NCBI GenBank assembly: GCA_902475535.1
Contig: CABRZR010000002.1
Coordinates: 2,124 to 66,123 of the forward strand
Direction of reading: 5' to 3'
DNA from: an uncultured Coriobacteriia bacterium
Lineage (GTDB): Bacteria; Actinomycetota; Coriobacteriia; Coriobacteriales; QAMH01
DNA: 64,000 nucleotides
Shown here: positions 3,820 through 44,898 of the stretch, in pieces
Layout of the letters: each line of letters opens with the position of its first letter
How positions within the stretch are numbered: the stretch's first letter is position 1
Program-made: the position numbers and the translations under genes
Notes under the pieces: generated by a model
Seen by the model: the letters and a program-made list of their open reading frames with translations, nothing else
What the model was told of the DNA's origin: nothing
The model's database searches: none

Positions 3820-4085
3820 GCCACAATACAGGGCATATCAACATGCATCTGCCAAGAAATGCGTTCCTGTGACCGTGGGCTCGACCATGACGTCACATTA
3901 CGGGACATATTCGCCAAGAAGTGTGCTTCCATGGTCATGAGTCCGACCATAGTGCCACAGTATTGGGCGCAGCAGCACATACCTGCCAAGAAATGTGCCC
4001 TCATGACCATCTGTAAAACCACGGGGCCACATTCTGAGACGCTCACTCCCTTTTCCTATTGCCAAGAAAGATGAAATGCGCATTG
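3820..4085. repeat. array A of a ~72-bp degenerate tandem repeat (core GCCAAGNAATGYGYYYYCATGRYC plus hairpin)
   Basis: GCCAAG cores at 3851, 3913, 3985 and 4061 (spacings 62, 72 and 76 nt). Units contain ATGGTC-N8-GACCAT hairpins, for example 3931-3950. Related units occur at 16350-16555 and 18005-18210. Confidence 0.8.
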
Positions 4086-4296: not shown

Positions 4297-8124
<3,828 letters not shown>

Positions 8125-8127
8125 GCC

Positions 8128-12546
<4,419 letters not shown>

Positions 12547-12582
12547 AATTGTCAAGCTTTTTTAGCTGCAATTTCTAAACGG

Positions 12583-12613
12583 GAATCCCCTGGTCATTGT
12601 GACCAGGGGATTC
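12583..12613 (+). terminator. perfect 13-bp stem hairpin after rpoC (terminator-like, no U-tract)
   Basis: GAATCCCCTGGTC-ATTGT-GACCAGGGGATTC, 37 nt after the rpoC stop. Confidence 0.5.
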
Positions 12614-12662
12614 GTGCGTGATAGGGCATGAAAAAGTTTGGATACACCCGGGTGCGTGGCGT

Positions 12663-12691
12663 TTGACAGTCTTGGATTGGACGGGTAGTCT
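12663..12691 (+). promoter_or_regulatory. candidate promoter of rpsL-rpsG-fusA(-rpsJ)
   Basis: Consensus TTGACA (12663-12668), 17 nt spacer, TAGTCT (12686-12691), 72 nt upstream of rpsL. Confidence 0.5.
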
Positions 12692-12762
12692 ACCGCCTTG
12701 CGCTTTTGAAACCTGCAAAAGCACTACTACGGTAAACCGGTAGCAAAACGAAAGGAACTACA

Positions 12763-13137
12763 TTGCCTACCATTAATCAGTTGGTCCGCAAGGGCCGCGC
12801 GAAGGCAGTCGACAAATCCAAGTCGCCCGCCCTCAAGGGCAATCCCCAGAAGCGTGGGGTTTGCACGCGCGTCTACACCGCAACCCCCAAGAAGCCGAAC
12901 TCGGCTCTTCGCAAGGTTGCCCGTGTCCGTCTTGTCAACGGCATGGAAGTCACCGCTTACATCCCCGGCATTGGCCACAACCTGCAGGAGCACTCGATGG
13001 TGCTCATCCGTGGCGGCCGCGTCAAGGACCTTCCCGGTGTCCGCTACAAGATCATCCGCGGTACGCTCGATACCGCTTCCGTGTCCGACCGTGCTCAGGC
13101 CCGTAGCCGCTACGGCGCCAAGAAGCCCAAGAACTAA
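12763..13137 (+). CDS. rpsL: 30S ribosomal protein S12
   Basis: [12 protein letters not shown]...[13 protein letters not shown] start after AAAGGAA. Confidence 0.97.
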
Positions 13138-13156
13138 AGAAAGGGGAGATTGAGAA

Positions 13157-13627
13157 ATGCCACGTCGTTCAGCTGCAGTACGCCGCGAGATTACTCCGGA
13201 TGCCGTATACAACAACCGCCTTGTCACGCAGCTCATCAACAAGATCCTGCTCGATGGCAAGCGTTCGACTGCCGAGAGCATCGTCTATGGTGCCTTTGAC
13301 ATTGTCGAGGCAAAGACCGGCGAAGATCCCCTGAGCGTCTTCAAGAAGGCCATGGACAACGTCCGCCCCACGGTTGAGGTCAAGCCCCGTCGCGTCGGTG
13401 GCGCCACGTACCAGGTCCCGACCGAGGTCAACTCCCGTCGTGCCACGACGCTCGCCATCCGCTGGATCGTCGGCTACTCGCGCGATCGCAAGGAGCGCAG
13501 CATGGCCGAGCGCCTCGCGAACGAGATCATGGACGCCTCCAATGGTCTGGGCGCATCCGTCAAGAAGCGCGAGGATGTCTACAAGATGGCCGAGTCCAAT
13601 CGCGCCTTCTCTCACTATCGCTGGTAG
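13157..13627 (+). CDS. rpsG: 30S ribosomal protein S7
   Basis: [20 protein letters not shown]...AFSHYRW. Canonical position after rpsL. Confidence 0.97.
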
Positions 13628-13639
13628 GAGGTATACACA

Positions 13640-15751
13640 ATGGCAACGAAGAAAACTCCGCTCGAGGATACCCGCAATATCGGCATCATGGCCCACATCG
13701 ATGCCGGCAAGACCACCACGACCGAGCGCATCCTCTACTACACGGGCAAGACCCACAAGATCGGCGAGGTTCACGACGGCGCTGCGACCATGGACTGGAT
13801 GGTCCAGGAGCAGGAGCGCGGCGTGACCATCACCTCTGCTGCCACCACGTGCTTCTGGGAGAAGGACGGTAAGCCCTATCGCATCCAGATCATCGACACC
13901 CCGGGCCACGTTGACTTCACCTCCGAGGTCGAGCGCTCCCTGCGCGTCCTCGATGGCGCCGTCGCCGTGTTCGACGCTGTTGCCGGTGTGCAGCCGCAGT
14001 CCGAGACGGTCTGGCGCCAGGCTTCCCGCTACGAGGTTCCCCGCATCGCCTTCATCAACAAGTACGACCGCATTGGCGCTAACTACTTCCACGCGATCGA
14101 CACTATGAGGGACCGTCTGGGTGCCCACGCCATCGCCGCCCAGGTTCCCATGGGCGAGGAAGACCATTTCTGGGGCGTTATCGACCTCGTCACCATGACC
14201 GCATGGGACTTCAAGGCCGACGACAAGGGCATGACCTACCCCGAGCCCATGGACGCCATCCCCGACGAGTTCGTTGACATCGTCGAGGAGCGTCGCGCCG
14301 AGCTGCTCGAGGCTGCCGCCGATTACGACGACGAGCTCATGGAGCTCGTGCTCATGGACGAGGAGATTCCCGTCGACCTACTCAAGAAGGCCCTGCGTGC
14401 TGGCGTTCTCGCCAATGATCTCAACCTCGTGTTCGTGGGCTCCGCCTACAAGAACAAGGGCGTCCAGGAGCTGCTCGACGCCGTCGTCGACTATCTGCCC
14501 AGCCCGCTTGACGTGCCGCCTGTCGTCGGCATCAACCCCGACACGGACCAGGAGGAGGAGCGCAAGCCGTCCAACAAGGAGCCGTTTGCCTCCCTGGCAT
14601 TCAAGATCATGACCGATCCCTACGTCGGCAAGCTCACCTATCTGCGTGTCTATTCGGGCCGTCTGGATTCCGGCTCCTATGTCGTCAATGCCAACAACGG
14701 CAAGAAGGAGCGCATCGGCCGTATCCTCGAGATGCATTCCAACGAGCAGCATGACGTCGATTACTGCTCCACGGGTGACATCGTCGCAGCTGTCGGCCTC
14801 AAGAACACGACGACCGGCGAGTCCCTGTGCGATGAGGATCATCCCATCATCCTCGAGTCCATGGACTTCCCCGATCCCGTTATCGACATCGCCGTCGAGC
14901 CCAAGACCAAGGCCGAGCAGGACAAGCTCGCCGTGGGTCTGCAGAAGCTCGCCGAGGAGGATCCGACCTTCCAGGTCCACACCGACGAGGAGACCGGCCA
15001 GACCATCATCGCCGGCATGGGCGAGCTGCACCTCGAGATCATCATCGACCGCCTGACCCGCGAGTTCAAGGTCGAGGCAAACGTCGGCAAGCCGCGCGTT
15101 GCCTACCGTGAGAAGCCGGGCCATGAGGTCCTCAACGTTCAGGGCAAGTTCGTCCGCCAGTCCGGTGGTCGTGGTCAGTACGGCGACGCCATCATCAACA
15201 TGCGTCCGGGCGAGCCGGGTTCTGGCTTCACCTTCGAGAACAAGATCGTCGGCGGTGCGATTCCCAAGGAATACATCCCGTCCGTCGAGAAGGGCATCGA
15301 GGAGGCTCTGCAGAGCGGCGTCATCGCCGGTTACCCCGTCCTCGACGTCGCTGTCGAGCTCGTCGATGGTTCCTACCACGATGTCGACTCCTCCGAGGCC
15401 GCATTCAAGGTCGCTGGCTCCATGGCCATCAAGGAGGCCCTGCGCAAGTCCGATCCGATCCTGCTCGAGCCTGTCGAGAGCGTCGAGGTCGAGACGCCCA
15501 AGGAGTACATGGGCGACGTCATGGGCAACCTGAACTCCCGTCGTGGTCAGATTCAGGGCCAGGAGGAGCGTGGCACGGCTACCGCCATCATCGCGCTCGT
15601 TCCGCTGTCCGAGATGTTTGGCTACGCAACCGACCTGCGTTCTGCCACGCAGGGCCGTGCGTCCTACAACATGCAGTTCGACTCCTATCGCCCTGTTCCC
15701 AAGAGCGTGTCCGAGGAGATCATCAAGAAGGCTGGCGGCAGCGCCGAGTAG
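13640..15751 (+). CDS. fusA: elongation factor G
   Basis: 703 aa. G-domain motifs [17 protein letters not shown] and NKYD. Confidence 0.98.
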
Positions 15752-15786
15752 CGCGAATCCGCTTGATATATGGAGGTTTGAGTTAA

Positions 15787-16101
15787 GTGGCCAACAAGAA
15801 GCAAAAGATTCGCATCAGGCTCAAGGGCTACGATCACGAGATCGTCGACAAGTCGACCAAGCTCATCGTCGAGACCGCAGCTAAGACCGGTGCGCGCATC
15901 AGCGGACCCATCCCGCTGCCGACCGAGCGTAACCTGTACACCGTCATCCGCTCGCCGCACGTCAACAAGGACTCGCGTGAGCAGTTCGAGATGCGTACGC
16001 ACAAGCGCCTCATCGACATCCTCGACCCGACGCCCAACACCGTCGACTCGCTCATGCGTCTCGACCTGCCGGCTGGCGTCGACATCGAGATCAAGCTCTA
16101 G
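15787..16101 (+). CDS. rpsJ: 30S ribosomal protein S10
   Basis: [21 protein letters not shown]...[17 protein letters not shown] start after GGAGG. Confidence 0.97.
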
Positions 16102-16145
16102 GGTATAGAGCAAGCGCCGCTACGCCATAACGCGACGGCTATCGA

Positions 16146-16186
16146 GGGGAGCGTACGCGGGGAAACCTGCGGCGCTCTCCCGTTTT
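16146..16186 (+). terminator. intrinsic terminator 1 after rpsJ
   Basis: Imperfect GC-rich hairpin GGGGAGCGTACGCGGGG-AAAC-CTGCGGCGCTCTCCC followed by GTTTTGT. Confidence 0.55.
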
Positions 16187-16223
16187 GTATCCCATGCAGC
16201 TCGCTAGGCTGCATGCAGGGGAA

Positions 16224-16257
16224 GGGGACCGTTCATCAAGAACGGCCCCCTTTCTTG
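16224..16257 (+). terminator. intrinsic terminator 2 after rpsJ
   Basis: GGGGACCGTTC-ATCAA-GAACGGCCCC (one mismatch) followed by TTTCTTGT. Confidence 0.7.
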
Positions 16258-16349
16258 TGGATGGTGCTTCTCGCGATGATGCTTTTTCGTGGGCTGCAGG
16301 TGATGTTTGCGAAGATCCCGGAATGAGGGCCGATGCAGCTTTGACCACC

Positions 16350-16555
16350 ACACCACATTTTCTGGCACTCAGCATGACTTCTGCCCAGCCATGTGCTTCT
16401 GTGGTCGTGCACTTAGTCACCAGGTCACACTCCATGGCGCTTTTGCCAAGCAATGCGCTCTCATGGTCGCCTTCCCGACCATAGTGCAGCAATTTAGGGC
16501 ACATGCATGGGATTGTGCCAAGTCATGTGTTCCCATGACCGCATTCTCAATCGCT
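16350..16555. repeat. array B of the ~72-bp repeat family
   Basis: GCCAAG cores at 16445 and 16517 (72 nt apart), plus a degenerate unit upstream. Contains hairpin ATGGTC-GCCTTCCC-GACCAT (16463-16482). The segment CACACTCCATGGCGCTTTTGCCAAGCAATGCGCTCTCATGG is nearly identical to 18089-18127. Confidence 0.8.
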
Positions 16556-16774
16556 CCATCACGAATGACTTGTAATCTGTACCTGGAAATGCACCATATC
16601 GTGCATTTTCAAAGTGACGCCTGAATATGCCGCTTCGCAATTCAATGCATATAACAAGTCGTCTGTAACGGGTTACCACCAAAAGATTAGCCACAAATGC
16701 ATATTCGTCAGCTTGTGAAGGTGCGGTTACTACTACTGGTGCGTGCAAGCACGATTCGGGCTAGAGCGCAGATT

Positions 16775-16830
16775 CGGATTTCACTCGGAAAAACGCCGGA
16801 AATCACTCGGATATCTATCGGATTTCGTTC
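16775..16830. repeat. five helically phased CGGAWWW direct repeats (11-bp period)
   Basis: CGGA starts at 16775, 16786, 16797, 16808 and 16819. The larger units CGGATTTCACTCGGA (16775-16789) and CGGAAATCACTCGGA (16797-16811) repeat at 22 bp. Confidence 0.7.
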
Positions 16831-16977
16831 AGATTGTGGGGGTGGATGGCTCGGCGGCGAATTCCATAACATGCGCGGGATAGAGCGTCCTATTAGGTTG
16901 TCGTGACGGGAGGTCGTTCTTCACGACATTTTGCGTGATAACCGGGGTGCAGCTCTAGTGCGATATGGGAGGTTAAT

Positions 16978-17961
16978 TTGAGAGCGTTCGTTAATGGAAG
17001 CTCGGCATTGTTTTTCTTGCGTAGGCATACGCGCGGCAATTCAATGCTTGAATCCATTGCATATGAGCCTTTGTCAGATTGTCCTAGTTCATCCGAAGAG
17101 CTTAAAAGGCTTGGGTTACAGGCTTGCCTGTTTGGTGTTCCTCCCATTCGATTAATGGTTTGTCGAGCAGAGGAGAGGTTTATGCGTAAATCATTTAACT
17201 ATACGATTCCGCATTTCAAATTACCTTGGGATTCGTTCATACAAGTGGATGAACATGTATGTGTCGCGCGTCCGGAATTATGCTTGCTCCAAGCATTCTC
17301 GGCATACTCAACTCCAGGGTTTCTGGAGCTGTGCATGGAGTTTTGTGGGACATATGCACTAATAAAAGAAGAGCAACGGGGTTTTATAACGCGGGACTTT
17401 CAGCTTGCAACCGTAGATTCACTTTCAGATTTCGCCAGAAGATGCCATAGCTACAAAATCAATCGAGATATTGTGCCGCTTTTCAAATACATTGCCGAAG
17501 GCGCAAATTCCCCCATGGAAACACGTGAGTATCTTTTGATGTGCCTTCCTAAGAAAATGGGAGGGTATGGCTTGCCAAAGGCGAGTCTTAACATGCAGAT
17601 AAACCTGTCGGAAGAAGAACAGTTCATAGCGCAATGTAAATATTTCAAAGCGGATATGTGCTGGCCTGACCGGAAGGTAATCATTGAATATGATGGGCAT
17701 GAGGATCATGAGTCCCTTAACGATCGTGCCTATGATGCAAGGCGCCGGAATATTCTTGTCCAGAAGGGGTACACAGTCTTCACGATGACGGGGCAGCAAG
17801 TCTGCAATGCAAAAGTCTTTGATAGCGTGGTTCGAGATGTTGCTCACGCTCTCGGTCATAGGCTCAAGGGCTTTCCGGAGAATTGGCCTGAGCGAAGAGA
17901 CGGTTTGCGCGGGGAGCTTTTTAAGACCATGGGAGATTACGACGAGAGCTGGGTATGCTAG
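16978..17961 (+). CDS. DUF559 / Vsr-like endonuclease-fold protein (AbiEi-N plus DUF559 type architecture)
   Basis: 327 aa. TTG start 5 nt after GGGAGG (16967-16972). The C-terminal block SPMETREYLLM...ADMCWPDRKVIIEYDGHEDH...DARRRNILVQKGYTVFTMT matches the DUF559 pattern (E...D-x-W...EyDG...D..R...L...G). The region is visibly AT-richer than its flanks. Confidence 0.7.
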   Translation: MRAFVNGSSALFFLRRHTRGNSMLESIAYEPLSDCPSSSEELKRLGLQACLFGVPPIRLMVCRAEERFMRKSFNYTIPHFKLPWDSFIQVDEHVCVARPELCLLQAFSAYSTPGFLELCMEFCGTYALIKEEQRGFITRDFQLATVDSLSDFARRCHSYKINRDIVPLFKYIAEGANSPMETREYLLMCLPKKMGGYGLPKASLNMQINLSEEEQFIAQCKYFKADMCWPDRKVIIEYDGHEDHESLNDRAYDARRRNILVQKGYTVFTMTGQQVCNAKVFDSVVRDVAHALGHRLKGFPENWPERRDGLRGELFKTMGDYDESWVC

Positions 17962-18004
17962 ACAGTTATGCTGTGCCGATGAACACGTCCTGTTGTTCGA
18001 TATG

Positions 18005-18210
18005 CGACCATGAGGACACATTGCTTGGCACCAATCTTCGATGTGCCCTGTAATGTGTACTGGTGGTCGCAATTGCTGCCACAGCAGCACATTCCATGGC
18101 GCTTTTGCCAAGCAATGTGCTCTCATGGCTGTGCTCTCGACCACAGAACCACAATTCGGGGCGGAGACCAGGAGCGCTGTCCAATAATGTGCTCCTGTGG
18201 CCATGTTGGT
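18005..18210. repeat. array C of the ~72-bp repeat family (includes one inverted unit)
   Basis: GACCATGAGGACACATTGCTTGGCA (18006-18030) is the reverse complement of the core. A forward core lies at 18107 and a degenerate one near 18180. Confidence 0.8.
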
Positions 18211-18450
18211 AATTGCCGTAGTGCAGCTCGAGCCAAGAGCCCTACCTGTATGAATTCCCATTAATCCCAAACTTTTCCTAGCATTCCTTGACGCACAGGG
18301 GTAATATATCGAACGCTGTGCATTTTTGGCGCAGTGTGTCTATCTCCTGGCGCAAATCTCACGTGCAAAGGGAGGAGGCTCGAAGCCGCGATCCGCTGAG
18401 AGAAAGCAAAGAGCTTTCCGCCTCAAGATCGCCTGACAGTAAGGTTGGCA

Positions 18451-19071
18451 ATGGTCAATACGATTCTCGGCCGTAAGCTGGGCATGACGCAAGTCTGGGG
18501 AGAAGATGACACCATCGTTCCCGTGACCGTCATTCAGGCTGGCCCCTGCGTGATCTCGCAGGTCAAGACCACCGAGACCGATGGCTACGAGGCCGTCCAG
18601 ATCGGTTTTGGTGACATCAAGGAAAAGAAGGTCAACAAGCCCATGCAGGGTCACTTCGCGAAGGCGGGCGTAAGCCCCATGCGCTATCTGCGCGAGGTTC
18701 GCGTCGAGGACGCCTCTGAGCATGCAGTCGGTGACACGCTCACCGTCGAGGCGTTCAACGATGTCGACAAGGTCGACGTCACGGGCGTAAGCAAGGGCAA
18801 GGGTTTCGCTGGCGTTATCAAGCGCTACGGCTTCGCTGGCGGCCCCGGTGGCCACGGTCACCACTTCCACCGTGCTCCCGGTTCGGTGGGCATGTGCGCG
18901 TATCCCGCGCGCGTTCTCAAGGGTCTGCGTCTTCCCGGCCACATGGGCTGCGACCGCGTGACGGTTCGCAATCTCAAGCTGGTGCGCGTGGACGAGGAGA
19001 ACAATCTTCTGTTGGTCAAGGGTGCCGTGCCTGGTGGCAAGGGTGCTCTCGTTCAGATCCGCATGGCTTAG
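18451..19071 (+). CDS. rplC: 50S ribosomal protein L3
   Basis: MVNTILGRKLGMTQVW... ATG 18451 is preferred over TTG 18445 because AAGG lies 6 nt upstream. Confidence 0.96.
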   Translation: MVNTILGRKLGMTQVWGEDDTIVPVTVIQAGPCVISQVKTTETDGYEAVQIGFGDIKEKKVNKPMQGHFAKAGVSPMRYLREVRVEDASEHAVGDTLTVEAFNDVDKVDVTGVSKGKGFAGVIKRYGFAGGPGGHGHHFHRAPGSVGMCAYPARVLKGLRLPGHMGCDRVTVRNLKLVRVDEENNLLLVKGAVPGGKGALVQIRMA

Positions 19072-38689: not shown

Positions 38690-41479
38690 ATGGGGGTAAC
38701 GACGGTCAGCACGCTTGACGCGCTGCTTGAGGCGAGTAACGCTGCTTTGCTGCGCGCACAAGGCGAAGGTGCCGCTGCCACGCTCATCGTACCCTCGCAT
38801 GCATGGGGGCAGCAGCGCAAGCTGCAGCTCCGCACACTTGTTGGCACTGGTGTCGATGTCGTGACGCATGCGCAGTTCGTGAGCCAGCTCTGGGATGTCT
38901 ACGGTGATGGCTCCACCATCGTGGCACCTGTAGAGCGCAAGGTCTTGCTGCGCCCGCTTATCACGCAGGTCGCCCTCTTCGACACCTCACCCTCTCCTGA
39001 CTTCGTCACGCAGCTTGCCGCGTTTGTCGAGGAGGCTATCTATCCGGGTCTGTGCCCGAGCACCGCGTTATCGAGCTCGGAGTCAAAGCTCATGGAGCTC
39101 GTATCGCTCTATGAGGCAAAGCTCGAGCATGAAGGCCTTGTCGAGCTTGCCCAGGCCGAGCACGTGCTCATGCAAGAGGGCGTCTGTCGGGGCATGCACC
39201 TAGTCTTCGAAGCCCCCGACTTACACAGCGCACATCTGCGCCGCTTCATCGCCGGAATCGAGCCAGGTGCGTCAGTTTCCGTCCTTCAGCAGCATCTCGA
39301 CATCAACGCGGGTGCTTTGCCAGAAGACGACGAGCTCCTTGCCTTGCGACAACGCCTTTTCACGGGCAAGGGCGGCGTTCGGGCGCAAGGCCACGTGCGT
39401 GTGGGCGAGGCTCACGGTGCGCATGTCGCAAGCGACGTGGTCACGGGTCTCGTGCGCAGCATGCACGAGGAAAACGGCATCGAGTATGCGGATATGCTCG
39501 TTTGCTGTGCCAGCGCTGCCGATGCATACCCGCGCCTGCATGATGCACTTGCGCGTGCGGGTATTCCCTTTGCCACGCAGTTTGCCGTGCCTTGTGCGCG
39601 CACGGGCCTGGGAGCCGCATTCTTTGCGCTCGAGACGATCGTGCAGGCGGGTGATGATGCGCCCTTTGAGCCCTTCGTCGATGTGCTGTGTGGTCCTTAT
39701 GCGGGGGTACCTGCCCAAGATGCTCGTGCCCTGCAAATGCGCTGGCGCGAACAAGCCGGCTCGGTGCCATACAAGAGAATGCGCGACGTGCGCGAGGGCT
39801 TCGCCCAAGGCAATGCGAGCGCTGCCATCACGCGCGAGCGTCTTGAACCTCTCGTGCAACTCATCGACGCTTCGCGCGCCGATCGCGTCAGGCTTCTCTT
39901 CGAGCACGCACGCTCGGCGCAGCTCGATGTCGACACGCTTGTCGACGACTGCGCGGCAGCCGAGGCTTTGCTGGACTATATCGAGCTCTGCGAGCGCTTC
40001 ATCTGCGAGCCCGATGCCGACGAGATGGCGAATCTTCCCGTCATGCTCAATCGCTCATACGGCAACCAGGAGGAGGCTCTTCGCATCGTCGATCCGGGCG
40101 CGCTCGGGACCATTCGCGCGGGTGCCATCATTCTATGTGATCTGGATGCGCGTCATTATCCGATGGCATTGCAGGGCGGCCCGTTCGACGCGCTCATGCG
40201 CAAGCTTGGCATCGAGCGCGCAGACACGCTTGCCCGCGACCAGCGTATTATGCTGCTCAACGCCATCGAATCGTGCGAGGGTTGCTTTGCCTTTACGCGC
40301 ACGACACACGATGCAGGTGGTGACGAAAGCTGTCCGAGCGCGCTGTTCGAGGAGCTCGTCGCCGCGTATCGCAGTTCCGAGGAAGACGAAGCGGGGCTTT
40401 CCGTCCAGGCTGTCCCGCAAGCTCTCAGGCCATGGCTGCTTGCGTTGAACGAGGCTGACGTCTTCTTCGCGAGCGAGGGGCCGCATGACGATGTCTCGGT
40501 TACGCGCGGTTCGCTTGCATTGGCTGCGATGAAGAAGGACCTGACACACGACCTCAAGGACAAGCCCCTGACGTTTTCGCCTACGGCTCTCGAGGATTAT
40601 TACCGCTGTCCGTATCGTTGGTTTGCATGTCGGCGCGTGGGCTACAATGGCATGGACGTCACATTCGATGCAGCCGCTCAGGGCAATCTCGTTCATGCGA
40701 CCATGGAGCGTTTCTACCGTCGTCTCAAGCAGGCCGGGCATGATCGCGTGACGGAGCAGAACGTGGACGAGGCGCTTGCCATTGCCAACAAGGCCTTCGA
40801 CCAGCAACTTGAAGATGACCAGTCGCGCGAGCGTCGGGGTCTCTACCTGCGCACCGAATACGACTCATGCGCGTGCGAAGAGCTGCGTCAACAGGTCTTC
40901 GACCTCGTGCGTCGTGATGCCACGTTTTTGCCGGGCTTTATCCCTATCTACTTCGAGCTTGAGCTTGGCCGTTCCTCAGAGCAGCTTCTCGAATACGCCG
41001 GCGTGCCTGTGCGTGGCAAGGTCGATCGCGTCGATGTCGATGCGGAGGGAAACGCCGTCATCATCGATTACAAGCTCAGTGGCCTTTCTGCTGGCTACGG
41101 CTTCGGCCGTGACGACGAGCTGCCGCAGCGCATCCAGACCGACATATACGCCACGCTTGTCGAGCGGCACTTCGCGGCGCTCGGCACGCCACTTCACGTC
41201 GTTGGCTCCGTCTATCGTTCATATGCCAAGAACGCGTTGCGCGGTGTCTATGCGCGCGGCATACCGTGGGGTGACACCGAGCAACTACGCGAGGACTTCG
41301 ATGCGTTGCCTCGTGCCGGTAGCGACGAGGGGTACGATGCGTATCTCACGCGTGTCGAGGATGTGCTCGCATCATGTGTCGAGCGTCTCCGTGCGGGTGA
41401 CATTGCGCCGGCTCCGCTCTCGAGCGACGTGTGCGAGTACTGCAAGGCGGCTTCGTTTTGTCCCAGGGGAGGTGCCTGA
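38690..41479 (+). CDS. AddB/RexB-like PD-(D/E)XK nuclease subunit of a helicase-nuclease complex
   Basis: 929 aa. No intact Walker A seen. The C-terminal RecB-type nuclease has GKVDRVDVD...AVIIDYKLS and the Cys motif CEYCKAASFCP. The stop overlaps the start of the downstream UvrD-type gene (ATGA). Confidence 0.7.
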   Translation: MGVTTVSTLDALLEASNAALLRAQGEGAAATLIVPSHAWGQQRKLQLRTLVGTGVDVVTHAQFVSQLWDVYGDGSTIVAPVERKVLLRPLITQVALFDTSPSPDFVTQLAAFVEEAIYPGLCPSTALSSSESKLMELVSLYEAKLEHEGLVELAQAEHVLMQEGVCRGMHLVFEAPDLHSAHLRRFIAGIEPGASVSVLQQHLDINAGALPEDDELLALRQRLFTGKGGVRAQGHVRVGEAHGAHVASDVVTGLVRSMHEENGIEYADMLVCCASAADAYPRLHDALARAGIPFATQFAVPCARTGLGAAFFALETIVQAGDDAPFEPFVDVLCGPYAGVPAQDARALQMRWREQAGSVPYKRMRDVREGFAQGNASAAITRERLEPLVQLIDASRADRVRLLFEHARSAQLDVDTLVDDCAAAEALLDYIELCERFICEPDADEMANLPVMLNRSYGNQEEALRIVDPGALGTIRAGAIILCDLDARHYPMALQGGPFDALMRKLGIERADTLARDQRIMLLNAIESCEGCFAFTRTTHDAGGDESCPSALFEELVAAYRSSEEDEAGLSVQAVPQALRPWLLALNEADVFFASEGPHDDVSVTRGSLALAAMKKDLTHDLKDKPLTFSPTALEDYYRCPYRWFACRRVGYNGMDVTFDAAAQGNLVHATMERFYRRLKQAGHDRVTEQNVDEALAIANKAFDQQLEDDQSRERRGLYLRTEYDSCACEELRQQVFDLVRRDATFLPGFIPIYFELELGRSSEQLLEYAGVPVRGKVDRVDVDAEGNAVIIDYKLSGLSAGYGFGRDDELPQRIQTDIYATLVERHFAALGTPLHVVGSVYRSYAKNALRGVYARGIPWGDTEQLREDFDALPRAGSDEGYDAYLTRVEDVLASCVERLRAGDIAPAPLSSDVCEYCKAASFCPRGGA

Positions 41480-44400
41480 TGCCTCTTACCCCTAGTCAAC
41501 AAGCTGCGGTCGAAAGTGCCCACGAGCCGTTATTCATCCAGGCTGGCGCCGGCACGGGCAAGACCTTTACGCTCACCAAGCGCATCGCATACGGCCTCTC
41601 GCAAGGGTCGGGGCCGCTCATCAGCGATGTCGATCGGCTGCTCACCATCACGTTTACCAACAAGGCTGCAGGCGAGCTTATCGGTCGCGTGCGCGCCGAG
41701 TTGCGTGCGCAGGGCCTTGACGAGGAGTCCCTCAAGATTGACGCCGCCTGGATATCAACCATCCATTCGATGTGCCGCCGCATACTGCTTTCGCATGCCT
41801 TCGATGTCGGTGTCGACCCAGGCGCAAACCTGCTCACCGAAGACGAGACGCAGGCGCTTTCCGCCCTCGCGCTCGATGCGTTGCTGCAGGACAACGCAAA
41901 GGACGCGCGCCTCATCTTGCTTTTCGACAATCTTGGCGTCGAGAGCGCGACGAAGCTCATCAACAATCTGTCAGAGTTGCTCATGCTCGCACCGGGCGGC
42001 AGGGATGATTTCGACTTGGGGCCAGCTCCTGCGTCGGCTCGCGTCATCGCCAGTCGCGTGCAAGGGCTCCTCGCCACGTATCAGGGAGCACTCGCCGAGC
42101 TCGACGAGTTGGGACTTCCCGAGGGCAAGATAACGTATGTCCAGAATCGCGATAAGGTCGCTGCGGTAGCAGCGGCTCTCGAGGCGCTGTCCACCAGCCA
42201 AAAGCGCCCTCTCTCCTGGAGCGCGCTTGCCAACGCCATCGAGGAGTGCAAGCCACCGGGTGGAGGCAATCTCTCCGCACCCTATAACGGCATCTTCGCC
42301 GAATGCAGAGATGCCTTGCTCGAGGCTGCGGCCGAGGCGCAGTCTGCGAGCGCGTACGAGCTTCTGCGAGCGGCACTCGACTTTGCGGCAGAGCATCTCG
42401 AGCGCCATCGTGCGCTCAAGCAGGCGCAAGGCGCGCTCGATACAAATGACTTGCTCATCGCGACGTACAAGCTGCTCGACGAAGACGATGAACTAGCGCG
42501 GACATATCGCGAGAGCTTCGATTCCGTCATGGTCGACGAGTTCCAGGATACGGACAACTTGCAGGTTGGCATCGTGAGCAAGATATGCGACGAGAACCTT
42601 GCGACGCTGGCCACAGTGGGTGATGCGCAGCAATCAATATACGGCTTTCGCGGGGCCGACCTCGAGGTATACCAGCGTACGCGTGCTATGATGCGCGAGC
42701 GCGGCTCCAACGAGGTCGAACTCACCGTTAACTATCGTTCGCAACCCGACATCCTGCGTTTCGTCGAGGACATCTTCTCCAAACCGGAGTTCTTCGGTGG
42801 GGAGTTCCTCAAGGTGAGTTCGGGTCGCGAGGAAGGGTTCAACCCGTCATGGCTCCTGCCAGACGAGCCACGTGTGAAGATACTCCTCTCGGCCGGTCAC
42901 AAGGCAGAAAAGGGGCAGGGAAGGACTTCGGTTGACGCGTTGCGCCAGGCCGATGCCGTGGCGCTTGCCGACGAATTCGAGCGCCTGCACGCACAGGGCG
43001 CCCCGTATGGCGACATGGCGATTCTGCTCCAGTCGACGAAGGGCGCCAAGGCAGGTCCCTATCTGCGCGAGCTGCGCAAACGCGGCATACCGGTCATCGT
43101 CTCGGGCGGTTCGGACTTCTTCTTGCAGCCTGAGGTTTCGACCGTTGTCATGCTACTGCGCGTTTTGGCAGACCGTGATGATGACGAGGCACTCTTCGAT
43201 TTGCTCGGCTCGGACTTCTTCAATGCAGGTGATGACGCGCTGCTCGTCCTGTCGGTCATCAACCGTCAGCGCCTCAGGCTCCTGCCCGGCGAGTCACGCG
43301 CCAAGCCCTCGCTCTATGACGCACTATGCCTATATATCGATGAGGCGCAGGACGATGCCGATGAGGCGCTTGCGCGTGCATTCGATACGCTCGAGTACGC
43401 GCTTGCCGCCTCGCCGAGCATCCCCCTCGCGCAGCTCGTGCGAGAGGCCATCGCGCTTTCCGGCTGGCAGGTCACGCTGTCTGCGCGCGGTATCGAGGGT
43501 GGTGCGGTTTTTGCGAATATCGAGCGCGCATGCGATCTCATCGAAGACTACGAGAAGCTTCACGGACATGCGCCCTTTGCCACGAGCGCCTATTTCCGCA
43601 GCCTTGTCGACCTCGCTCGCGAGGGCAAGGGTGCTCGTGCCAAGCTTGGAACGCTCGTAAGCTCGGGCCAGGATGCCGTCTGCATCATGACGATTCATAG
43701 CTCAAAGGGCCTGGAATTTCCCATCGTTGCCGTTGCGGAGTTCGAGAAGAGCGCACGTAATACCGGCACACCGCTCATTTCGCTTTCCGAAGAGGGCAGA
43801 CGCTATCTCGCGCTTGGCGTCACGGGGTCGAGTGCCGCTGCACGCTACCTTACCGACGAAGACCAGGACCCCGGCTCCTTCGCCTTTGCCAGTGAGGTCG
43901 CCGAGCATCGGGCTCATGCCCATCAGCTCAAGAAGCTGCGCGATGCACAAGAGCAGCAGCGTTTGCTCTATGTCGCGCTCACGCGTGCGCGAGACAAGCT
44001 CATCCTCGTGGCACATGATGGCGCTTTCGCATCCAAGGGCGACTTGTCTGCGGGCCTCGCGAGCAGCTGCCTGCATGCGGTGTTTGGCAAGGAGATTCCC
44101 ACGCAGCATGCAAGGATCAGGACAGATGCCGGGGCGCTCGTGGAGCTTGCCATCACCGAAGTTCCCTACGGGGCGCAAGAGGAGCAGGCGGACGACGAAA
44201 AGGGCTCGCTCGTCGTCATGCATCGTTATCCGGTTTTTGAATTGCCGCCGCGTATTTCGGCGCAGCCGCTTGATCGCAGGCAAATCTACTCGTATTCCTC
44301 GATTGCGCATCGCGATGCGCAGCATCGTGAGCTTGTCGCCCCCGCAGTCACCTTGCATGATCGCTCACAGGATGTCGAGACGGTCAGTCCCGTCGGCTCG

Positions 44401-44898
44401 TCGTTCCACCTTGTCGCGCAATGGCTTGCGTTGGTTCCGCGTGCCGATGAACGCAGCATTGAGCGCCGCATGCTCGCCGCCGCGCGTCGCTATGGACTCG
44501 ATGAGGAGCAACGCACGCGGCTTGCCAACGCGGTCGCTGCTTGGGTCTCATCGGAGCGCTACGCCATGGTGCAGGAGTACGCGCGTCGCTATGCGGAGTA
44601 TGCGTTCTGCGTCGATGTCGAGGGTGTTCCGCTCGAAGGCTACATTGACCTCATATGCTTTGATGACGAAGGAGGAGCCCTGGTCATCGACTACAAGACG
44701 GGCACGAGCGGACAGGGTGAGGACCTGCACGAGCGCTACGCCCTGCAGGCGCAGTGCTATGCCTACGCGCTGCTGTCTTCGGGCGCCTGCGAGCATGTCG
44801 ACATGGCGTTCGTACGTCCCGAGGCCAACATGGAGGAAGTGCTCTTTAGTTTTGACGCGAGCGATGCTCCGGCGCTTGCGCAGAAGATCCTTGCATAG
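41479..44898 (+). CDS. AddA/RecB-like UvrD-family helicase with C-terminal PD-(D/E)XK nuclease
   Basis: 1139 aa from ATG 41479 (RBS GGGGAGG). Motifs AGAGTGKTFTL, VDEFQDT, TIHSSKGLEFP and YVALTRAR. C-terminal nuclease GYIDLICFDDEGGALVIDYKTG. Confidence 0.85.
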   Translation: MPLTPSQQAAVESAHEPLFIQAGAGTGKTFTLTKRIAYGLSQGSGPLISDVDRLLTITFTNKAAGELIGRVRAELRAQGLDEESLKIDAAWISTIHSMCRRILLSHAFDVGVDPGANLLTEDETQALSALALDALLQDNAKDARLILLFDNLGVESATKLINNLSELLMLAPGGRDDFDLGPAPASARVIASRVQGLLATYQGALAELDELGLPEGKITYVQNRDKVAAVAAALEALSTSQKRPLSWSALANAIEECKPPGGGNLSAPYNGIFAECRDALLEAAAEAQSASAYELLRAALDFAAEHLERHRALKQAQGALDTNDLLIATYKLLDEDDELARTYRESFDSVMVDEFQDTDNLQVGIVSKICDENLATLATVGDAQQSIYGFRGADLEVYQRTRAMMRERGSNEVELTVNYRSQPDILRFVEDIFSKPEFFGGEFLKVSSGREEGFNPSWLLPDEPRVKILLSAGHKAEKGQGRTSVDALRQADAVALADEFERLHAQGAPYGDMAILLQSTKGAKAGPYLRELRKRGIPVIVSGGSDFFLQPEVSTVVMLLRVLADRDDDEALFDLLGSDFFNAGDDALLVLSVINRQRLRLLPGESRAKPSLYDALCLYIDEAQDDADEALARAFDTLEYALAASPSIPLAQLVREAIALSGWQVTLSARGIEGGAVFANIERACDLIEDYEKLHGHAPFATSAYFRSLVDLAREGKGARAKLGTLVSSGQDAVCIMTIHSSKGLEFPIVAVAEFEKSARNTGTPLISLSEEGRRYLALGVTGSSAAARYLTDEDQDPGSFAFASEVAEHRAHAHQLKKLRDAQEQQRLLYVALTRARDKLILVAHDGAFASKGDLSAGLASSCLHAVFGKEIPTQHARIRTDAGALVELAITEVPYGAQEEQADDEKGSLVVMHRYPVFELPPRISAQPLDRRQIYSYSSIAHRDAQHRELVAPAVTLHDRSQDVETVSPVGSSFHLVAQWLALVPRADERSIERRMLAAARRYGLDEEQRTRLANAVAAWVSSERYAMVQEYARRYAEYAFCVDVEGVPLEGYIDLICFDDEGGALVIDYKTGTSGQGEDLHERYALQAQCYAYALLSSGACEHVDMAFVRPEANMEEVLFSFDASDAPALAQKILA

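Follow-up and report, generated by a model that had tools for sequence, protein, structure and literature searches.

Three described systems come closest to the locus analysed here. They are the EDxHD (Vsr-like) homing endonucleases, whose prototype is I-Bth0305I (PDB 3R3P) and among which free-standing members have been mentioned (PMC3239194); the REPtrons, or REPIN-RAYT systems (PMC3116915, PMC3337134); and solitary Vsr-like/DUF559 endonucleases such as Caulobacter VsrA, whose function is tied to that of a methyltransferase encoded elsewhere (PMC12907096). The locus lies in a 64,000-nucleotide (nt) stretch of DNA from an uncultured Coriobacteriia bacterium (positions 2,124 to 66,123 of the forward strand of contig CABRZR010000002.1), referred to below as the window. 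In this window, a gene for a 327-amino-acid (aa) nuclease-like protein, bracketed by arrays of related repeats, is located between the ribosomal protein genes rpsJ (S10) and rplC (L3). The literature library searched contained nothing on repeat-bracketed DUF559 genes or on the rpsJ-rplC junction in Coriobacteriia.

The locus shares some features with each of these systems. Among solved structures, the C-terminal domain of the window protein is best matched by I-Bth0305I (profile E 3.8e-5), with all five catalytic positions conserved at near-identical spacing; in both cases an N-terminal non-catalytic domain precedes the nuclease domain, and the gene is selfish-looking, low in GC and patchily distributed. 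Unlike the I-Bth0305I gene, the window gene sits between genes and not inside an intron or intein (no intron was found with Rfam), and its N-terminal domain has no NUMOD or helix-turn-helix match. Known homing endonuclease genes are not bracketed by repeat arrays, and no member of the window family was present in the viral contigs searched. With REPIN-RAYT systems the locus shares a single-copy nuclease-type gene between palindromic hairpin repeats of lineage-specific sequence, inverted-plus-direct unit pairs that make long hairpins as REPINs do, an extra gene-less repeat copy found elsewhere only in the gene-bearing lineage and, in some clades, a syntenic inheritance that looks largely vertical. 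However, the window protein has a PD-(D/E)xK/Vsr fold and is not a HuH Y1 transposase (IS200-like TnpA), its repeat units are 60-140 nt long rather than 20-40 nt, and the whole unit shows cassette-like presence and absence. REPIN repeats are dispersed, with tens to hundreds per genome; in the 64 kb analysed here there are three arrays, one of them away from the gene. Like Caulobacter VsrA, the window gene is solitary, unlinked to a methyltransferase, and encodes a DUF559 domain; the window family adds an N-terminal domain of ~200 aa, repeat bracketing, a conserved candidate operator and promoter of its own, and a strain-specific cassette.

Our preferred reading, to which we assign a probability of roughly 60%, is that the gene belongs to a self-contained selfish nuclease cassette of ~2 kb, with near-terminal repeat arrays, set in an rpsJ-rplC operon boundary that already existed. 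Genome comparison shows the cassette to be present in some genomes and absent from others in each of two independent species. The inserted DNA includes both arrays, the closest strain (L091) keeps a scar of one unit, and a gene-less array near rpoB is confined to the nuclease-bearing lineage.

Limits of the cassette and its empty sites

The distance between rpsJ and rplC in the window, as given by Pfam identification and the list of open reading frames (ORFs), is ~2.35 kb. The inserted DNA, its parts, and a related repeat element located elsewhere in the window are as follows.

16293-18255, plus strand: inserted cassette, ~1.96 kb relative to the sister lineage, replacing ~28 nt (blastn and alignments).
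16343-16563, plus strand: repeat element B, a partial inverted unit and three direct units of ~60-72 nt; cores start at 16382, 16444 and 16516.
16774-16833, plus strand: 11-nt periodic TCGGA(A/T)(A/T)TCAC repeats, conserved in other genomes too, 5' of the family genes; a candidate operator.
16845-16872, plus strand: putative promoter, GATGGC-N16-TAACAT (family form in the alignment, GATGAC-N16-TACCAT).
16900-16934, plus strand: hairpin followed by ATTTTG in the nuclease 5' untranslated region (UTR), scan match 16913-16927; terminator-like, possibly an attenuator.
16978-17961, plus strand: nuclease gene, 327 aa, two domains, a novel N-terminal one and a C-terminal Vsr/DUF559 (EDxHD) one.
17986-18227, plus strand: repeat element C, an inverted unit (17986-18039) and three direct units; cores start at ca. 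18045, 18106 and 18178.
3831-4050, plus strand: repeat element A, a gene-less third copy of the composite element, 5' of the rpoB promoter region; a ~220-nt indel relative to L186.

A look-up with the exact S10 protein matched 4,629 index blocks. Of the contigs carrying it, 24 long ones were read, and these displayed 7 distinct arrangements. None of the seven carries the nuclease gene. Five (L086-L090) represent a sister lineage with 93-94% nt identity to the window and an rpsJ-rplC spacer of 301 nt. Relative to this lineage, homology extends through T2, the second of two terminators downstream of rpsJ (see below), to ca. 16292 and resumes at ca. 18256. The closest strain, L091, is 95.8% and 99.2% identical to the window on the two sides and has a spacer of 373 nt; positions 16198-18186, with a GC content of 49.1%, are missing from it, T2 is gone, and a single repeat unit is left (blastn and alignments). 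The window cassette consists of a ~50-nt lead, array B, a spacer, the 11-nt periodic operator-like repeat and promoter, the 5' UTR hairpin, the nuclease gene, array C, and a ~28-nt trail, which places the arrays 50 nt and 28 nt from its ends. An earlier note, made by reading the window without database searches, had taken the block for horizontally acquired or selfish DNA. These empty arrangements, together with homologues located in unrelated contexts, agree with that view.

The composition of the block points the same way. Estimated by eye in the earlier note at mid-40s % GC, it was computed for the nuclease ORF as 46.4%, the lowest of any kilobase in the window (mean 59.6%). Codon usage is also foreign: GC content at third codon positions (GC3) is 47.6%, compared with 75-90% in neighbour genes, and an index resembling the codon adaptation index is 0.31, compared with 0.57-0.82.

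A 259-aa call of the same nuclease gene was found in at least eight independent gut assemblies, always between rpsJ and rplC and with the same spacing, and the same arrangement occurs in L092; the arrangement is therefore not an assembly artefact. Both 259-aa and 327-aa products of this gene are listed, in one cluster (27 members), and a 259-aa product was used for the context look-up.

A second empty site was found in another species. In L083 a cassette lies between a DtxR-family gene and feoB, while the syntenic locus L193, with flanks 93.8% and 87.3% identical, has a 119-nt spacer only and no repeat unit. The L083 block (5479-7266; 1,788 nt) replaces 19 nt of L193 and carries two arrays with a 61-nt period, located 34 nt and 3 nt from its ends. 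At both sites the arrays are inside the inserted block, close to its ends, and are thus carried along with the gene. At neither insertion was a target-site duplication found, ~19-28 nt of target having been replaced; since a transposase domain was also missing, a classical transposon or insertion sequence was rejected. An attempt to map a third empty site through the msiK neighbour of L146 failed, the relatives (79% aa identity) being too distant for edge mapping. The earlier note had treated the repeats as a signature of insertion. They are indeed near-terminal parts of the inserted block, but they are not specific to it, as the third copy at 3831-4050 makes them a dispersed family.

It could be argued that the whole species complex inherited the cassette from its ancestor and repeatedly lost it, so that the window displays retention and not insertion. 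The arrays are old (54-59% identity), L091 resembles a deletion derivative because T2 is lost and one unit kept, and a family gene is maintained at one syntenic site in L081, L096 and L108, where flanks are ~84% identical. However, neither the sister-lineage spacers nor the empty site in the second species contain a repeat remnant, the GC3 of the gene is still ~30-40 points below that of host genes, and the allele cluster is tiny (27 members against 4,629 index blocks for the S10 protein). We regard retention as improbable. That a single sub-lineage of a species complex of Coriobacteriia from the human gut acquired the cassette appears to be the best explanation of these alignments. In the simplest history, an empty site such as that of the sister lineage would have received the ~1.96-kb insertion, and an imprecise deletion in the L091 line would later have left the one-unit scar.

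Repeat arrays and DNA upstream of the nuclease gene

The same composite element of ~220-250 nt makes up each of arrays A, B and C; in it an inverted (partial) unit is followed by three direct units, with cores spaced by 61-62 and 72 nt. The core TGCCAAGCAATGTGCTCTCATGG is matched four times (0.00 expected). The relatedness of the two flanking arrays and the inversion of one unit, both noticed earlier by eye, were recovered by nhmmer in arrays B and C (E 3e-10 for the inverted unit 17986-18039). Overall identity among the three arrays is 54-59%, and that between the second units of B and C is 75%. The 60-72-nt arrays went undetected by Tandem Repeats Finder because the units are too divergent, and no further units were found in the 64-kb window outside A, B and C. 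While single units form weak-to-moderate hairpins, the inverted and first direct units of array C together form a long hairpin (18003-18071) right after the nuclease stop codon, and the segment that holds it, 17998-18076, folds as DNA at -22.4 kcal/mol (z -6.1).

In nhmmer searches, units were detected only in loci of the nuclease-bearing lineage (at the rpsJ junction and upstream of rpoB, with five samples giving both), in L092 and, as the single scar unit, in L091. None was detected in the rpoB-upstream loci of ten other strains (L183-L192) or in L085-L090. The array A indel relative to L186 is clean, and the ancestral sequence bordering it already looks like the end and the start of a unit (GCCACAATACA ... 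TGCCAAGAAAG). This co-occurrence of repeats and gene is suggestive of a link between repeat mobility and the nuclease gene. An integron cassette was considered and rejected: inspection of the palindromes in L146, in L149 and in the window showed none of the R''/R' (RYYYAAC / GTTRRRY) ends of attC sites, and there is no integrase nearby.

Translation of the nuclease ORF is predicted to start at a TTG codon after a GGGAGG Shine-Dalgarno sequence, a start backed by the aligned N-termini of homologues. The upstream DNA shared by close relatives contains TCGGAAATCAC-like repeats with an 11-nt period and, 3' of these, GGGTGGATGACTCGG-N-TACCAT. Direct repeats resembling TCGGAAATCAC are kept 5' of the family gene in the window, L081, L083 and L093-L108, across hosts whose proteins are only 45-60% identical. 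The 11-nt repeats are a candidate operator, which may serve autoregulation or a host factor. The hairpin at 16900-16934 is absent from the shorter UTRs of homologues and may attenuate expression.

The nuclease family and the nature of the element

The DUF559/Vsr-like assignment made from the letters of the window was upheld by a Pfam match to DUF559 (PF04480; 27.4 bits against a cut-off of 20.6) at residues 225-287. Among 31 family members, 20 match DUF559 and 23 match REase_MTES_1575. Residues E181, D226, H244 and D253, the equivalents of Vsr E25, D51, H69 and D97, are invariant in the 31 sequences; E237 and Y238 are also invariant, and D239 and G240 nearly so. The catalytic residues map onto E-D-x-H-D of I-Bth0305I with the same spacing. 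AlphaFold (AF2) gave a confident two-domain model with a predicted local distance difference test score of 93.3 and a predicted template-modelling (TM) score of 0.91. Its C-terminal domain matches the I-Bth0305I catalytic domain (3r3p; Foldseek probability 0.97, TM 0.54) and also resembles viral DUF559, VSR and homing-endonuclease models. In the N-terminal domain (~200 residues), no Pfam match was found in residues 1-220, and no structural neighbour was found. A search against the AbiEi Pfam families, suggested in the earlier note, gave no match, either for the window protein (E<=1) or in the 31 members (E<=0.01), and an N-terminal domain of AbiEi type was rejected. NCBIfam returned a sub-threshold DUF559 equivalog only, and PHROGs a weak family of unknown function only. 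We infer from sequence and model that the protein is a nuclease with an intact EDxHD/Vsr active site, its activity and target being predicted.

Homologues are 42-55% identical over their full length, and an exhaustive profile search retrieved 2,811 cluster representatives (50% identity) at E<=1e-30, nearly all of ~320 aa. They are encoded by solitary genes in unrelated contexts, with GC nearly always below that of the surroundings. Pairwise alignments indicate that the family diverges in situ far faster than its flanks: protein identity is 69% between L155 and L157 (flanks 98.5% at the nt level), 62% between L081 and L096 (84.6%), and 57% between L129 and L139 (~85%). In the first pair (L155 4724-6263, L157 4333-5826) identity falls sharply at the gene edges, which points to allelic replacement or strong diversifying selection.

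A repeat shared from flank to flank was present in 17 of the ~42 family loci with adequate flanks, compared with 6/225 and 10/136 in controls (3-7%). These repeats are long palindromes of host-specific sequence (z -3 to -7). Some repeat-flanked loci are syntenic and therefore not independent.

The most likely mechanism, in our opinion, is that the cassette behaves as a selfish unit resembling a homing endonuclease gene or a REPtron. The nuclease would cut DNA at, or guided by, the repeat units, and break repair or recombination at these units would then insert, copy or excise the cassette and solo arrays. This causal link from the nuclease to repeat mobility is one that we infer. It is conceivable, though on balance doubtful, that the ~320-aa family and its host-specific palindromic arrays constitute an undescribed class of mobile or selfish elements, either a PD-(D/E)xK analogue of REPIN-RAYT or a free-standing homing cassette with terminal repeat arrays. 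If so, the nuclease would recognise or cleave its own repeat units and drive insertion, excision that leaves a single unit as a scar, and the spread of arrays without a gene, like the one near rpoB.

Another explanation, which we view as possible without favouring it, is that the protein is a housekeeping or defence nuclease, either a solitary Vsr-like mismatch endonuclease working with an unlinked 5-methylcytosine methyltransferase or a type IV-like restriction nuclease. It would have entered a permissive gap by ordinary horizontal transfer, and the palindromes would be passive terminators, insulators or recombination substrates. The precedent of Caulobacter VsrA (PMC12907096) speaks for this explanation, as do the REase_MTES_1575 matches in 23/31 members, the fast diversification typical of defence genes, and the many family members that have no repeats. 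However, there is no methyltransferase among the window genes examined, and PADLOC gave no match. Nor do passive terminators explain why the same palindrome lies on both sides of the gene, inside the block, in two independent insertions, or why the gene-less array is restricted to the nuclease-bearing lineage.

The reading of the locus as a selfish cassette has its own difficulties. The lack of a PADLOC match to the nuclease protein counts against it too, as does the absence of any family member among 2.9 million viral contigs. Many distant members are not flanked by repeats and occupy conserved syntenic positions. At 54-59% identity, the arrays must be old and not fresh copies, and the co-occurrence of repeats and gene in the species complex is effectively one phylogenetic event. 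All copies of the window allele are found at one locus, which gives no direct indication that the allele has moved recently within the species.

The cassette edges are defined in two species, and the family diversifies rapidly in place. A large DUF559-type family of unknown function (~2,800 clusters at 50% identity) thereby gains a testable genomic behaviour, that of a cassette with its own putative promoter and near-terminal palindromic arrays.

The rpsJ-rplC boundary and the leader upstream of rplC

The features that frame the cassette are the following.

15787-16101, plus strand: rpsJ (S10; Pfam PF00338, 1.3e-39), 36 nt 3' of fusA; closes the upstream unit.
16143-16190, plus strand: terminator T1, a hairpin (16143-16182) followed by GUUUUGU; -29.5 kcal/mol, z -4.2.
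16215-16259, plus strand: terminator T2, a hairpin (16224-16250) followed by UUUCUUGUG; -26.1 kcal/mol, z -3.3.
18279-18307, plus strand: TAGCAT-N17-TAATAT, a candidate promoter for rplC that is conserved in the sister strains lacking the insert.
18386-18434, plus strand: structured RNA leader, conserved, ending ~21 nt before the rplC start codon.
18451-19071, plus strand: rplC (L3; Pfam PF00297), heading its own unit; an alternative TTG start is present at 18445, and the product is annotated as 206 aa in relatives.

Two rho-independent terminators had been proposed downstream of rpsJ, and folding bore out both: in 200 shuffles no sequence folded as stably as either hairpin. T1 is common to the window and L091 and is missing from the sister lineage; T2 is homologous, by alignment, to the sole terminator in the sister-lineage spacer (L086). 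Neither was called by a simple consensus terminator scanner, because their stems are bulged. In a consensus promoter scan, neither the candidate rplC promoter nor the promoter-like site of the nuclease gene was called (weak -35). These terminators and promoters therefore rest on folding and conservation. An intrinsic terminator follows rpsJ in every variant, be it T1, T2 or a third, different one (L085), and terminators are also located 3' of rpsJ in L032, L037 and L040. Taken together with gene order, rpsJ behaves as the last gene of an rpsL-rpsG-fusA-rpsJ unit ended by an intrinsic terminator.

The structured RNA preceding rplC has the consensus GRUCCKCUGRR-[variable hairpin]-CYYAWGAYC and forms three predicted helices. 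It was found, exactly once per locus, in the window and ten further loci, which belong to the same species complex or to other genera (L002, L003, L032, L037-L040, L042, L043 and L086). Every examined Coriobacteriia locus that has a spaced junction and holds rplC contains it, and it was not found in the tight-junction loci L004, L031 and L034. Of 14 predicted pairs in the alignment, 8 show compensatory changes. Paired cells amount to 90.7%, compared with 77.4% in shuffles (0/500), and the covariation score is 0.417, compared with 0.163 (0/500); slid controls gave 33-48%. The leader has no match in Rfam 15 and is not among the candidates of the 2020 r-leader catalogue, and Rfam scans of the gap and rplC upstream region gave chance-level matches only (Chlorobi-1, E 0.14; mir-210, E 0.59). 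Among published leader candidates, only the archaeal L4 leader (L4-Archaeoglobi) precedes rplC (PMC7247131). Split or re-partitioned S10/str clusters with L4-type leaders (the E. coli S10 leader; L4-Archaeoglobi, PMC7247131) resemble the present case in having an autoregulatory-looking structured leader directly 5' of an rplC-rplD... unit. The present leader differs from those ribosomal protein leaders in that it precedes rplC and not rpsJ, is bacterial (Coriobacteriia), and is listed neither in Rfam 15 nor in the 2020 catalogue. It is a well-supported candidate ribosomal-protein leader new to Rfam, and a candidate L4/L3 autoregulatory leader of Coriobacteriia.

These data bear on the proposal, made in the earlier note, that a functioning rpsJ-rplC unit was split by the insert, forcing the downstream genes to acquire a new promoter. 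A recent break of this kind would fit with the reality and foreign nature of the insert and with the tight junctions of 15-20 nt that exist in some Coriobacteriia (L004, L031 and L034, two of them labelled Eggerthellaceae). Against it, the insert-free relatives already have a spacer of 301-373 nt, a terminator and the same rplC upstream region, ~190 nt 5' of rplC being conserved between them and the window. The covarying leader is present at every spaced junction holding rplC, and a terminator follows rpsJ in every variant, L085 included. We consider this scenario very unlikely, and this part of the earlier note is not supported. Since the insert-free relatives share these elements and the leader is widespread, the operon boundary predates the insert. 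The selfish cassette of our preferred reading would have landed in an inter-operon gap that already existed; the gap being pre-existing, the insertion would have been tolerated and would not have re-wired ribosomal gene expression. A foreign gene "inside" the S10 operon thus need not mean a broken operon: here rpsJ belongs to the upstream unit, and rplC probably heads a regulated unit of its own.

The junction varies widely across Coriobacteriia, and those with unrelated cargo in Atopobiaceae and Olsenella together span 0.15-4.5 kb. It measures 115-386 nt in L002, L003, L032, L037 and L040; it reaches 1.1-4.5 kb in Atopobium and Olsenella, with unrelated cargo (a low-molecular-weight phosphatase; a LytTR two-component system plus phosphatases), and exceeds 8 kb in Collinsella. 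Judged from the arrangement in L085, the junction is a hotspot of structural variation.

In L085 (6316-12315; identical S10), the different terminator comes right after rpsJ; next are a 56-aa ORF and genes for a Na/sulfate symporter, a molybdopterin oxidoreductase and a GerE regulator, and rplC was not seen in the 6 kb downstream of rpsJ. In Collinsella (L007 and others, 8298-16297), the genes after rpsJ are birA, in the opposite orientation, and a fatty-acid synthesis cluster (fabH, fabD, fabG...), with no rplC within 8 kb. In the rplK-rplA / rplJ-rplL / rpoB region of the same species complex (L183-L192), core clusters are also repeatedly broken by strain-variable accessory genes. The L1-L10 interval holds a PDDEXK_2 gene, a major facilitator superfamily transporter gene, a LysR gene and a HepT/MNT pair, and the L12-rpoB interval holds PPK2, either alone or together with a metallophosphoesterase; within 5 kb after rplL, no rpoB was seen in L188 and L192. 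Elsewhere in the window, at 38690-44898, a helicase-nuclease pair of the AddB/AddA type (PDDEXK_1; UvrD plus PDDEXK_1) is followed by a divergent gene for a DinB-family polymerase; this is ordinary repair content, unrelated to the cassette.

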